Source of the DNA: a virus
Taxonomy: Duplodnaviria; Heunggongvirae; Uroviricota; Caudoviricetes
Reading direction: 5' to 3' (one strand)
Length of the DNA: 8,601 nucleotides
IMG/VR virus record: IMGVR_UViG_2700989489_000020
Position 1 is the first letter of the stretch. Every line of letters begins with the position of its first letter. The notes below the pieces were generated by a model, which worked only from the letters and a program-made list of their open reading frames with translations, did not search any database and was not told the DNA's origin. Positions 1,311 to 8,601 of this stretch are shown in pieces. A program made the position numbers and the translations under genes.

Positions 1311-1571
1311 CTAATCTTCAAAAGCAGAAAAACCAGCCTTAATCCCAGCTTCTTTCAGAGACGGCAACGATGTGACAAATTCATTTGCACGCAAAATAAA
1401 ACCATCCGTCACAAGCCCATCCACAAAATGAATTAACGCAGCTCCACTCTTCCTTTGTTGAGACTGTAAACATTTAATACGGCAGTGGCTGACAATAGCG
1501 CCCTTCTCAACGCGCACAGTATAGAGGCCATCTTCACTAAAAATTTCACGTAATTCTTCGATTCTCATCAA
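1311..1571 (-). CDS. Small hypothetical protein (86 aa); sits where rem lies next to hokD in Qin-type prophages
   Basis: ORF track. GGAAGGA about 9 nt upstream of the ATG on the minus strand. Identity with Rem not verified. Confidence 0.5.
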   Translation of the reverse strand: MMRIEELREIFSEDGLYTVRVEKGAIVSHCRIKCLQSQQRKSGAALIHFVDGLVTDGFILRANEFVTSLPSLKEAGIKAGFSAFED

Positions 1572-2279: not shown

Positions 2280-3038
2280 TCAAGTGCCTTTCCTGGTCCA
2301 GCCATATTTTTTGAATGCAGGCGCCGCTTCATCGGTTTGTAGCCATTCTGCAAATCGACGGGTTTCATCATTTGCATCCTGACGTACTGTAATGTTCATA
2401 TCACGCCATATCACGTAGTCTGGCGCTATTTCCACGACATCACCAATTTCTGGATTACTGGCTGCCCAGTCAGCCCAGGTTATCCAGACATCTGCTCCAG
2501 GCTGATTCTCAAGAGCCTTACGTGCAGTTCCGCTATTGGGCGCATATAAAATAATATTTTTTCGGATTGCGGCGACAGTTTCTATATTCCCTTTACGTCC
2601 GGCAATATCTTCCCAGACGCCAGTGCCTGATGTATTACTGGTACCACCACCATCATTAACAATTACGCCAATCCCAGGTCTGGTCAGGTCGTCAATACTC
2701 CGGATATTTTTAGGATTACCTTTCTTTACCAGTAAAATACTTTTTCGCAGATAAAGAGGCTGAATATCTTTTTCACTGAAGCTGTCTTTATGGTCCCGAA
2801 TGATAGCCAGAGCAGATTGTTCTGATGCGCCAAACAAGATATCTGCATTTTTTTTGGCATCTTCATTCCATTTGTTCTGTGGGCCGTAATGAACGTTCAC
2901 TATAATACCTGTTTTTTCGGCATAAAGTTTGGCTGCATCAAGCAAGGCTGTATGCGGGCCACCAGGACCATACAGATTGATATCAGCATAAGCAGCAGAA
3001 GACAGGAATATTAAAAAACCTGCCATTATGTTCCTCAT
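2280..3038 (-). CDS. Secreted periplasmic substrate-binding protein (ModA-like solute-binding fold), orphan cargo gene
   Basis: ORF track 252 aa. AAGGAG 7 nt upstream of the ATG at 3038. Sec-type signal peptide MRNIMAGFLIFLSSAAYA then DINLYG. C-terminal ...FKKYGWTRKGT resembles the ModA C-terminus from memory. Visibly AT-rich relative to neighbours. Confidence 0.75.
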   Translation of the reverse strand: MRNIMAGFLIFLSSAAYADINLYGPGGPHTALLDAAKLYAEKTGIIVNVHYGPQNKWNEDAKKNADILFGASEQSALAIIRDHKDSFSEKDIQPLYLRKSILLVKKGNPKNIRSIDDLTRPGIGVIVNDGGGTSNTSGTGVWEDIAGRKGNIETVAAIRKNIILYAPNSGTARKALENQPGADVWITWADWAASNPEIGDVVEIAPDYVIWRDMNITVRQDANDETRRFAEWLQTDEAAPAFKKYGWTRKGT

Positions 3039-6159: not shown

Positions 6160-6682
6160 ACGAACCCCTGGCAGACATTTGTTTATCTGCAAAGTAATAT
6201 TGGTATTGCTGACGATACGCGTGCTTGAAAGCAATAGCTTTTTCTATAAGCTCGTCAGTCTCACGTTCCACAACAACTGGATCCGCAAAAAGCAGCCCGG
6301 ACTCCACCACATCGCCATATTCTTTGTTTAACCCGGCGATCATGTACGTAATGCTTTTTCCGTCAGTAATTTCACAATACAATCTGAAATCGCTGATCCG
6401 GATAGCCTCCATAATTGCCGGAATCAGCGCCGTGAATTTGTCACGCTTATCTCTGGTGTCGATAGCTTTCCAGCGTTCGAATATCTTCACCCGGTTAACG
6501 CCCAGCGCCCGTTGATCAACCTCGCCATCATTAAACGTGACGCGTTGAACATCGATGTTCGGGCGTTCTTTCAGAGCCCAGAATGCTTCCGTGATTAATA
6601 TCGTCGCCTGCTCCTGTGTCATTCCTGGTCGGCATACCCAGGTATCCAGAGCCTCACAAACCTGTTCAGTGGTGATTTTCAT
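6131..6682 (-). CDS. YdaT-like protein in the cII position (183 aa)
   Basis: ORF track. Sits between the Cro-like gene and the initiator; overlaps the Cro-like stop by 17 nt and the initiator start by 29 nt. YdaT call rests on synteny with Rac racR-ydaS-ydaT and a loosely remembered motif. Confidence 0.55.
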   Translation of the reverse strand: MKITTEQVCEALDTWVCRPGMTQEQATILITEAFWALKERPNIDVQRVTFNDGEVDQRALGVNRVKIFERWKAIDTRDKRDKFTALIPAIMEAIRISDFRLYCEITDGKSITYMIAGLNKEYGDVVESGLLFADPVVVERETDELIEKAIAFKHAYRQQYQYYFADKQMSARGSYEYRCTTMG

Positions 6683-6893
6683 TGTTCAACCGCCCCGCCC
6701 GCTTTGCCTTACGATATTCGTCATAAACTTTGGGGTCGTACTGAAGTTCCCCGCCGGATGCCTCTTGCAGGCGCATCGCGCGACCTTCAGGAACCAGTTC
6801 CCCCCATGCAGCAACGCTTGCCAGCCTAACTCCTGCGACATTGGCAAGCTTTGTTTTGCTGCCAAAAAACGCTATAGCATCAATTTTCAACAT
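6666..6893 (-). CDS. Cro-like HTH regulator (P22 Cro / YdaS family)
   Basis: 75 aa. AAGGGG 6 nt upstream of the ATG. Core FFGSKTKLANVAGVRLASVAAWGELVPEGRAMRLQEASGGEL resembles P22 Cro from memory. Divergent from the repressor. Confidence 0.75.
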   Translation of the reverse strand: MLKIDAIAFFGSKTKLANVAGVRLASVAAWGELVPEGRAMRLQEASGGELQYDPKVYDEYRKAKRAGRLNNENHH

Positions 6894-6969
6894 ATCGAAC
6901 CCCTTAGATTTTCCTAAGGAAACTAGATCGTAGAGAAACCTAAGTCAAGAAAAATTAGAATTACCTAAT
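6894..6969. promoter_or_regulatory. Divergent control region with three 16-bp dyad operators and two back-to-back promoters
   Basis: Operators of form YTTAG-N6-CTAAR: CTTAGATTTTCCTAAG (6903-6918), CGTAGAGAAACCTAAG (6929-6944), ATTAGAATTACCTAAT (6954-6969), spaced 25-26 bp. Minus-strand promoter: TTGACT (plus 6943-6948), 17 bp, TAGTTT. Plus-strand -10 TAGAAT (6956-6961) ends 8 nt before the repressor ATG, with a poor -35. Confidence 0.6.
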
Positions 6970-7377
6970 ATGAAAAACGAAACCTTCGGTGCTCGCCTCT
7001 TATACAGGCGAAAAAAATTAAAACTGTCTCAGGCCGCATTAGGTAAGCTGGTCAAAGTGGCTCACGTAACAATTTCTCAATGGGAAAGAGATGAAACACA
7101 GCCAGCGGGGAAGAGATTATTCGCACTGAGCCAGGCGCTTCAGTGCTCGCCGACTTGGCTTCTTTTTGGAGATGAAGATAAGCAACCAGGCGAACCGATC
7201 CCAGATAATCAGCCAGTCAATCTGACAGAAGATCAAAAAGAGTTGCTTCAACTGTTCGACGCACTGCCTGAGTCAGAGCAAAAGGCTCTGTTGTCAGAGA
7301 TGCGTGCTCGAGTTGAGAATTTCAACAAACTTTTTGAAGAACTACTCAAAGCTCGCAAAAGAAGCGCAAATAAATAA
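6970..7377 (+). CDS. CI-like prophage repressor, XRE-family HTH, no S24 peptidase domain
   Basis: 135 aa. HTH in LSQAALGKLVKVAHVTISQWERDE. Too short for a LexA-like autocleavage domain and no such motif seen. No Shine-Dalgarno; apparently leaderless. Confidence 0.85.
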   Translation: MKNETFGARLLYRRKKLKLSQAALGKLVKVAHVTISQWERDETQPAGKRLFALSQALQCSPTWLLFGDEDKQPGEPIPDNQPVNLTEDQKELLQLFDALPESEQKALLSEMRARVENFNKLFEELLKARKRSANK

Positions 7378-7410
7378 CCCCCCTTTTTTTCGCAACTCTC
7401 TGTAATAAAA

Positions 7411-7440
7411 AGCACAAACTTTCAAATACTTGTGTTTTTT
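7411..7440 (+). terminator. Weak candidate terminator after the repressor gene
   Basis: AGCACAA pairs with UUGUGUU (one G-U), 12-nt loop, then UUUU. Large loop makes it weak. Confidence 0.3.
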
Positions 7441-7451
7441 ACATCAAGAAG

Positions 7452-7505
7452 CTTAGGTTTTTCTACACAAAAAGCTTGACCATAACTCTTAGGCTATTCT
7501 AAATT
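7452..7505 (+). promoter_or_regulatory. Putative PL-like promoter with two operator-like sites
   Basis: CTTAGGTTTTTCTACA (7452-7467) and CTTAGGCTATTCTAAA (7488-7503) share the half-site and N6 spacing of the 6903-6969 operators. -35 TTGACC (7476-7481), 18-bp spacer, -10 TAAATT (7500-7505). Confidence 0.45.
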
Positions 7506-7584
7506 CTACTCATCAAGACACCGCACGGTGTTCTCAGCAAACAGTTCCGCTACCCGGCGTTAAGGGGAAGCAGAGGATTTCTCA

Positions 7585-7941
7585 GTGGGCGAAGTCAAAC
7601 ATCAGAATGGAAGGCGTCCAGGGATCAGCAAAGAAACAGCGATGGCGCTTTATATTGATATCAGCGCCATTGCCGGACAGGTAAGAGTTATCAGAGCGGT
7701 AACTAAGCGGTATGCGCCTTTACTTCAGAAAGTCTCTGGTGAGTGCACCGAAGATATTGTCAACGATTTCGTCATCGAACTGCGAGGACTCATCTTCAGT
7801 TACAAGGTGACCACAATTTTTGCAGATGGCTCCCGCGAAACTGTCAGAGCCCTGCGGCTTAAAGGATGTGTCAAAGACTTAGCCACCACATTCTGGGCAA
7901 GAAAACTTGATTGTATTCATAACCAATTTCCTCTCGAGTAA
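7585..7941 (+). CDS. Hypothetical protein, first gene of the left operon (118 aa from GTG; alternative ATG at 7642)
   Basis: ORF track. GAGGA 7 nt upstream of the GTG at 7585. No recognisable family; no N-like arginine-rich motif. Confidence 0.5.
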   Translation: MGEVKHQNGRRPGISKETAMALYIDISAIAGQVRVIRAVTKRYAPLLQKVSGECTEDIVNDFVIELRGLIFSYKVTTIFADGSRETVRALRLKGCVKDLATTFWARKLDCIHNQFPLE

Positions 7942-8254: not shown

Positions 8255-8521
8255 ATGGAATTTAAAGATTTACCAACGCCATTACAGGAAATGGCATCGA
8301 ATATAGTTCGTTCACAACTGGCTACTCTTGACCTTAGTACCGCAGAAAAAGAAACCATCGATAATATGGTTCGTAATGTGCGCAATGCTTTTTCTGGGCT
8401 ATATGGTTCTGATAATCAAAAGCAGGAAAGCGATGTTAATAAACGGGTAATTTCTGTTTGCGTGAATGGCCATGTGAGGTGTACTGGCAATAGCGGACAC
8501 TACCATTTGTTCTTTTTTTAA
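8255..8521 (+). CDS. Hypothetical protein (88 aa as read); 3' end probably replaced by IS-derived sequence from about 8480
   Basis: ORF track. GAGG 8 nt upstream. Last ~13 codons lie inside the inferred IS terminal repeat. Confidence 0.5.
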   Translation: MEFKDLPTPLQEMASNIVRSQLATLDLSTAEKETIDNMVRNVRNAFSGLYGSDNQKQESDVNKRVISVCVNGHVRCTGNSGHYHLFFF

Positions 8522-8601
8522 GCAGCCATCTGATGATATTTTTCCCTGAAGGCTGCCGGGGAGATATTCCCCAGACGAGAGTGACGACGCTGACGATTGT
8601 A
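8480..8601 (-). mobile_element. Right end of an IS3-family insertion sequence (terminal repeat plus transposase 3' end); element continues past the window
   Basis: Plus strand from 8480 reads TGTACTGGCAATAGCGGACAC, resembling the IS3 terminal repeat as I recall it (TG..GCAATAGTGGACAC). Transposase stop lies 38 bp inside that end. Confidence 0.55.
8518..8601 (-). CDS. IS3-family transposase (OrfB-type), C-terminal 27 codons only
   Basis: Minus-strand translation YNRQRRHSRLGNISPAAFREKYHQMAA-stop, matching the conserved C-terminal pattern of IS3-family transposases (compare IS3 ...[24 protein letters not shown], from memory). Confidence 0.65.
   Translation of the reverse strand, partial: YNRQRRHSRLGNISPAAFREKYHQMAA

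Follow-up and report, generated by a model that had tools for sequence, protein, structure and literature searches.

The DNA analysed here, a stretch of 8,601 nt that we refer to as the window, carries a dicA-type repressor gene with the divergent dicC gene on one side and a promoter followed by the first genes of an operon on the other (Table 1). The window was 100% identical to prophage DNA in Escherichia coli O26:H11 and O157:H7 genomes and in O145, O103, and O55 genomes. This prophage has already been deposited as PPompW (complete record, 43.8 kb), integrated at ompW, where the repressor is annotated "dicA: regulator for DicB". The element is a Qin-like lambdoid prophage at ompW in enterohaemorrhagic E. 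coli. The repressor matched NCBIfam NF007257 over residues 1-135 of 135 (241.6 bits; cut-off 101) and is 63% identical to K-12 DicA, and DicC matched NF007282 (167.6 bits; cut-off 130) and is 83% identical to K-12 DicC. Residues 2-69 of DicA match the N-terminal domain of P22 C2 (PDB 1ADR, 2R1J, and 3JXB; E ~1e-21), for which DNA complexes have been solved, and no S24 peptidase domain was found in the 135-aa protein. A further 86-aa ORF is 73% identical to K-12 Rem and is annotated rem in PPompW; it matched no Pfam family. All three genes, dicA, dicC, and rem, are intact in the window, and several neighbouring genes are pseudogenes.

The operon beyond the promoter had been called uncharacterised in the earlier note, which was made from the window sequence alone. 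That description did not hold: because the downstream genes in IS-free copies are dicBF-type, we assign it as a dicBF-type early-left operon, in which the first ORF matched no known family in Pfam or NCBIfam. Read from the O157 copy L001 and the PPompW record, the uninterrupted gene order is the 99/118-aa ORF, ydfC, a 135-aa ORF, a DicF variant, and dicB, followed by a DUF1482/YdfD-like gene, an exonuclease gene, xis, int, and then ompW. Host-killing, recombination, xis, and int functions of an early-left operon are thus all found in L001 and PPompW. The DicF variant lies at 8609-8658 of L001, outside the window and beyond the IS600 position, and scored 43.5 bits with Rfam RF00039 (E = 1.2e-7). 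Because the gathering score is 48, annotation with Rfam defaults would narrowly miss this copy, and at that threshold no DicF was reported in L001. L001 and K-12 share 96% identity over the dicF-dicB stretch, in which the 3′ hairpin of DicF is a variant one. An IS600 copy interrupts the third ORF in O26:H11 strains FWSEC0001 and MBT-5 (8476-8601 in the window; 8919-10075 in L002). The O157, O145, and O55 copies have an unbroken operon, and some have IS1203 in the replication gene.

Other features were noted on the minus strand of the window. A hok/sok type I toxin-antitoxin locus at 1789-2091 consists of a HokD-like ORF and an Rfam sok match of 103.9 bits, and its relative position is equivalent to that of hokD in K-12 Qin. 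Positions 1699-1780, between hokD and the rem homologue and on the same strand, gave a sub-threshold match to Rfam IsrK, an sRNA of Gifsy prophages (24.9 bits against a gathering score of 50; E = 0.038); the segment ends in a strong terminator hairpin, and the match could be due to chance. Positions 2280-3038 hold paa, an adhesin gene of the AcfC family ("porcine attaching-effacing associated protein"), as cargo in the early-right region of the prophage; a frameshifted fimbrial-protein pseudogene follows it.

Table 1. Positions of the regulatory features, leader elements, and genes in the window
Feature	Position	Strand	Basis or remark
rem homologue, 86 aa, probable antirepressor of the DicA-type repressor	1311-1571	-	PPompW annotation, K-12 identity
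dicC, Cro-like regulator, 75 aa, divergent from repressor gene	6666-6893	-	NCBIfam NF007282
OR-side operator 1, CTTAGATTTTCCTAAG	6903-6918	.	Perfect palindrome beside dicC; positional equivalent of K-12 Oc
OR-side operator 2, CGTAGAGAAACCTAAG	6929-6944	.	1 mismatch
OR-side operator 3, ATTAGAATTACCTAAT	6954-6969	.	2 mismatches; abuts dicA start codon
dicA-type repressor gene, 135 aa, HTH and short C-terminal domain	6970-7377	+	NCBIfam NF007257
A/U-rich hairpin after dicA, weak terminator-like	7406-7441	+	RNA fold
Predicted operator, OL2 equivalent, CTTAGGTTTTTCTACA	7452-7467	.	Sequence read, motif count, cross-locus and P22 alignment
-35 hexamer TTGACC	7476-7481	+	Promoter scan; same hexamer in K-12 dicBp and P22 PL
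Predicted operator, OL1 equivalent, CTTAGGCTATTCTAAA	7488-7503	.	Overlaps spacer and first 4 bp of -10
-10 hexamer TAAATT	7500-7505	+	Promoter scan; 18-nt spacer; same as P22 PL -10
Conserved 5′ leader, ~60 nt	7511-7567	+	Cross-locus alignment, covariance model
Predicted transcription start, A of CATCAA	7512	+	P22 and K-12 comparison
Leader 5′ hairpin	7517-7532	+	Directly after CAUCAA
Leader core GTTCCG	7544-7549	+	Invariant; GTTCYG across loci
Leader 3′ hairpin	CCC 7553-7555 with GGG 7564-7566	+	Stem sequence varies between loci
Possible overlapping helix (pseudoknot)	CGCT 7548-7551 with GGCG 7556-7559	+	Near-invariant pairing
First operon ORF, 118 aa from GTG, GAGG Shine-Dalgarno	7585-7941	+	RefSeq: 99 aa from ATG 7642
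ydfC homologue, 72 aa	8014-8232	+	Annotated ydfC in identical records
5′ part of third ORF, truncated by IS600	8255-8475	+	Identity to uninterrupted O157 locus stops at 8475
End of IS600 copy	8476-8601	.	Splits operon from dicF/dicB in the window's strain

Operator-like sites on both sides of the repressor gene

The earlier note had described two motif copies that bracket TTGACC and overlap the -10; its coordinates were accurate, and our promoter scan of the window returned the same hexamers, with TTGACC-18 nt-TAAATT matching the consensus at 9 of 12 positions. The upstream site ends 8 bp before the -35 and is centred 16 bp upstream of it, and each site has an imperfect right half (CTACA at 7452-7467 and CTAAA at 7488-7503). 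We placed the predicted +1 at A7512, 7 nt past the -10, by homology with P22, whose record puts the 5′ nucleotide of the PL transcript at the A of CCATCA.

We then counted the motif. Exact CTTAG-N6-CTA gave five matches at four sites in the window (6903-6918, which as a perfect palindrome was counted on both strands, 6931-6944, 7452-7465, and 7488-7501), against 0.13 expected, and none of the four sites lies outside the two intergenic regions that flank the repressor gene. Extending the search to the complete 43.8-kb PPompW added no further exact site, so that the two control regions hold all four where 0.5 would be expected. The exact motif exceeds chance, since five matches were reached in 0 of 200 shuffles of the window and the prophage result in 0 of 100 shuffles. 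Under a looser scoring, counting mismatches over the 10 specified positions of CTTAG-N6-CTAAG, the OR-side sites carry 0, 1, and 2 mismatches and the sites at 7452-7505 carry 1 and 2, with both mismatches of 7452-7467 in its right half. At up to two mismatches the motif showed no genome-wide enrichment (6 found vs 9.8 expected), and five of the six occurrences fall in the two control regions.

The resulting layout consists of dicC on the minus strand, the OR sites at 6903-6969, dicA on the plus strand, and a second cluster at 7452-7503 on the far side of the repressor gene, where the sites carry the OR motif and overlap a sigma-70-type promoter directed away from that gene. The parallel with lambda OL/PL drawn in the earlier note therefore stands in so far as a second, PL-like cluster reuses the OR motif, but not as a lambda-like triplet: the spacer between dicA and the first ORF contains just two sites at up to two mismatches rather than three tandem operators, and upstream of 7452 no third operator was found, that position being occupied by the dicA hairpin. 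This hairpin (12 bp, -9.6 kcal/mol, z = -3.76 by RNA folding) corresponds to the weak terminator described after the repressor gene, but the consensus terminator scan makes no call at 7406-7441 because the stem has too few G-C pairs. The logic shared with lambda is that the repressor gene lies between operator clusters, the distal of which controls the leftward early operon, and that this operon, like the dicBF-type one, carries recombination, excision, and host-killing functions. Lambda differs in that neither its operators nor its repressor show detectable sequence homology to those of the window, in that it has three sites and relies on N/nut for antitermination, and in that its induction follows RecA-stimulated cleavage.

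Comparison with K-12 Qin and P22

In K-12 Qin, the gene order dicC, OR, dicA, promoter, ydfC ... dicF, dicB is the same as here, and a Rem antirepressor is also encoded upstream. The K-12 dicA-ydfA spacer aligned in register with window positions 7440-7575, with TTGACC kept and a nearly identical transcribed leader. At equivalent positions, the window has CTTAG-N6-CTACA and CTTAG-N6-CTAAA, whereas K-12 has GTTAG-N6-CATAC and GTTAG-N6-CTAAT. The same C/G difference recurs in the OR palindrome, which reads CTTAGATTTTCCTAAG in the window and (TT)GTTAGTCATAACTAAC(AA), the operator Oc, in K-12. Differences from K-12 also include the spacer between -35 and -10 (17 nt in K-12, 18 nt here), the first genes (ydfA and ydfB in K-12, the 118-aa ORF here), and the terminator-like hairpin that follows dicA in the window. 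On the basis of these sequences, we read the region as a heteroimmune counterpart of the known dicBp system.

This system has been studied in K-12 Qin by Bejar, Bouche and Bouche 1988 (as cited in PMC10448788), Yun 2012 (PMC3441716), and Ragunathan 2023 (PMC10448788). DicA is required for repression in vivo through Oc, TTGTTAGTCATAACTAACAA, in which one A-to-C change abolishes repression (PMC3441716); Oc shares its TTAG-N6-CTAA geometry with the sites of the window. In the in vivo assay of the same work, K-12 DicA bound Oc alone and not the two other OR sites predicted from sequence, so not every copy of the motif need be bound (PMC3441716). Rem relieves DicA repression of dicBp (PMC10448788). 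The operators at dicBp have been described in the K-12 literature from sequence inspection only, and the binding location of DicA at dicB is recorded as unknown, with low evidence (PMC7567609). An O157:H7 study of DicC and DicA could not be linked to the PPompW copy, as no locus identifiers were found in the text searched.

The two sites at 7452-7503 might mainly be targets of DicC, so that the promoter would be switched off after induction rather than held off in lysogeny. Cro and repressor share operators in lambdoid switches, and a DicC that is 83% identical to that of K-12 is present. Reporter fusions to K-12 dicBp nevertheless make such a role improbable, since deletion of dicA caused 22-fold derepression and deletion of dicC no change (PMC10448788); control by DicC and control by DicA are, besides, not mutually exclusive.

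The promoter region also matched OL/PL of P22, for which OL1-3, PL, nutL, gene 24, and the position of the PL transcript's 5′ nucleotide are annotated. The P22 sequence reads ATTTAAGTTTTCTTCAAA, 7 nt, TTGACC, 4 nt, AATTAAGAAGTCTTAAAT, with TAAATT as the -10 and the A of CCATCA as the start, such that the -35, the -10, and the CATCA start are all as in the window. P22 OL2 is centred 16 bp upstream of the -35, like 7452-7467, and in both systems another operator overlaps the -10; that of the window lies one base further out owing to its 18-nt spacer. Written in the same frame, the P22 half-sites read TTAA-N6-TTAA and those of the window TTAG-N6-CTAA, and the DNA-binding domains of P22 C2 and the window repressor are homologous (E = 1e-21). 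P22 differs in three respects: it has three annotated OL sites as against two; its C2 has a RecA-cleavable C-terminal domain, whereas the window repressor is short and lacks one; and its leader has nutL (boxA and boxB) followed by gene 24, the N analogue, whereas the window has neither a boxA nor an N-like ORF. The PL-like character proposed in the earlier note is thus backed by homology, through the in-register alignment with K-12 dicBp, a promoter that DicA represses 22-fold in reporter fusions (PMC10448788), and the match to annotated P22 OL/PL.

Covariation of sites and repressors across DicA-type loci

We scanned species-representative genomes with a DicA alignment and obtained about 25 full-length DicA-type loci from Escherichia, Citrobacter, Pantoea, Enterobacter, Erwinia, Buttiauxella, Serratia, and others, as well as from Cronobacter phage phiES15. 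When anchored on the start-proximal CATCAA, 22 loci showed one layout, namely a site, ~8 nt, TTGAC/TTGCC/TTGAT, 5-6 nt, a second site, ~9 nt, and CATCAA; each has two downstream sites, not three, and the set includes loci of Escherichia, Citrobacter, Pantoea, Enterobacter, and Serratia and that of a Cronobacter phage. The half-sites are of several types (CTTAG, GTTAG, CTAAC-N4-GTTAG, and CTTAAC...GTTAAG) that differ by repressor subgroup, and at each locus those of the promoter match its own dicA-dicC spacer. When each promoter region was compared with its own OR, the best-matching 16-mers agreed on average at 14.0 of 16 positions, compared with 11.6 +/- 0.7 in shuffles and 12.4 for loci below 60% DicA identity; the 16-mer matrix separates subgroups only coarsely because most share a TTAG...CTAA core. 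This cross-locus comparison puts the predicted DicA sites at two fixed positions around the -35 and the -10.

Within the CTTAG subgroup (the window, Pantoea, Enterobacter, and Erwinia), the sites are nearly identical and the DNA between and around them has diverged, a pattern that, judged from the aligned sequences, is that of a phylogenetic footprint. Among the aligned repressors, those of loci with CTTAG sites have SQAA in helix 2 and those of loci with GTTAG sites have TQR(S/E/T/A), whose Arg may contact the G of GTTAG.

All 22 loci, and P22 with OL2, have the upstream site at one position, centred 16 bp from the -35; its sequence tracks the OR motif of its own locus, and its left half and spacer are conserved between diverged flanks. 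These observations argue against the main rival reading, in which 7488-7503 is the only working operator and 7452-7467 is weak or vestigial, or makes cooperative or looping contacts with OR ~550 bp away. We consider that reading rather unlikely, even though the right half of 7452-7467 deviates from the motif at two positions, K-12 DicA leaves two of its three predicted OR sites unbound in vivo (PMC3441716), and the equivalent site starts with TTTAG, not CTTAG, in Pantoea and Erwinia relatives. Less likely again, as is control mainly by DicC, is that promoter and motifs are a non-functional, decayed relic of a P22-like ancestor in front of a left operon already broken by IS600. Such decay might be suspected where IS600 parts the promoter from dicF and dicB, as in the window's strain, and where several nearby genes are pseudogenes, but many O157, O26, O145, O103, and O55 genomes, IS-free copies included, match the control region with 100% identity, the regulatory genes dicA, dicC, and rem are intact, and the sites match their own OR palindrome with no sign of drift, so that we regard a relic as very improbable.

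The motif, its geometry, the homology, and the covariation across loci are best explained if 7452-7505 is the OL/PL equivalent, corresponding to dicBp, that is, a promoter for the early-left operon that is silenced by the prophage's own DicA-type repressor; we put the probability of this reading at about 0.8. The sigma-70 promoter (TTGACC, TAAATT, predicted +1 at A7512) would transcribe away from the repressor gene into the early-left operon. Dimers of the DicA-type repressor, whose binding at 7452-7503 we infer from K-12 genetics and homology, would occupy 7488-7503 and 7452-7467 and exclude RNA polymerase, which would keep the toxic dicBF genes silent. Since the repressor lacks a RecA-cleavable domain, the Rem-like protein of 1311-1571 would be expected to act as antirepressor and relieve repression, as Rem does in K-12. 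Points against this reading are the 18-nt spacer that the -10 needs, the imperfect right half-sites, the unbound OR sites of K-12, the low-evidence record for DicA at K-12 dicB, and the coarse separation given by the 16-mer matrix.

The products of dicBF, a cell-division inhibitor and an sRNA, are toxic when derepressed and affect phage resistance and, in EHEC, virulence regulation, so the location of the repressor sites matters. The half-site is CTTAG in the EHEC prophage PPompW as against GTTAG in K-12, and from this difference we predict heteroimmunity between co-resident Qin-like prophages. A promoter with two predicted DicA sites is real but ordinary, the system having been known since the 1980s, and the accepted picture of lambdoid immunity regions is unchanged.

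The conserved leader downstream of the promoter

The leader at 7511-7567 is the only part of the region that may repay further work. The sequence shared with K-12 sets in right at the predicted +1 and extends over ~60 nt between mosaic flanks. Behind the promoter, 24 of 27 loci carry this leader (e.g. L003 1938-2000, L004, L005, and L008-L028, downstream of dicA), and its distribution covers at least six genera of enterobacteria. A search with a covariance model built on the core and 3′ hairpin returned one copy per locus, always at the leader position, with no PR-side copy and nothing credible in HK022 or P22; the best HK022 match (10.2 bits, E = 2.1) lies inside IS903. The leader had no Rfam match at E <= 1.

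Support for a structure is confined to the 3′ hairpin, where covariation is seen once the leaders are realigned with the model. In that alignment, 98.5% of cells pair, compared with at most 71% in slid controls; the outer pair occurs as CG/GC/AU and the inner pair as CG/UA/GC/UG, and two of the four pairs never vary. The covariation score was reached by 0 of 500 shuffles, in an alignment that was fitted to the model and so favours it. The candidate pseudoknot helix, CGCY with RGCG, is 97% paired and almost invariant. RNAalifold found no structure in the raw MAFFT leader alignment, and by RNA folding the leader of the window is no more stable than shuffles (z = -0.96).

Two known kinds of element were compared with the leader and rejected. 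A nutL/N element was set aside because no boxA was found on the plus strand after the promoter and no N-like ORF in the window or its relatives; the first operon ORFs of both are not arginine-rich and matched no Pfam or NCBIfam family. The other is put of HK022, an N-less lambdoid phage element whose putL copy, like the leader, lies directly downstream of a PL-type promoter and is a multi-hairpin RNA of similar size, ~60-70 nt (PMC9378689). The put element has L and R copies, whereas the leader has no PR-side copy; the leader signature is absent from HK022, the putL sequence is unrelated, and the covariance model gave no credible match there.

On a further reading, which we consider rather unlikely, the leader would be a structured RNA that acts in cis in DicA-type lambdoid prophages lacking N and has not been described before, possibly with a factor-independent anti-pausing or antitermination role that would be put-like but unrelated to put. 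The idea of antitermination draws solely on the position of the leader and on the terminator-like 3′ hairpin and T-run of DicF upstream of dicB. If true, the leader would let PL-type transcripts pass internal terminators, that of dicF for example, to reach dicB, exo, xis, and int.

Further elements were observed past the leader in some loci. In Citrobacter and Buttiauxella (L014, L016, L017, and L018), a hairpin AGCGCCC...GGACGCT lies ~15-60 nt past the leader and is followed by a boxA-like CGCTCTTTAAC/AAATC, in rrn-like order; this arrangement is absent from the window and K-12. In the loci with GTTCTGAC leaders (L005, L019, L023, and L027), the leader is followed at a distance of 60-130 nt by a further occurrence of the loop motif GGAAAGAC within a ~500-nt untranslated stretch, and this recurrence suggests a larger structured leader in the GTTCTGAC subclass.
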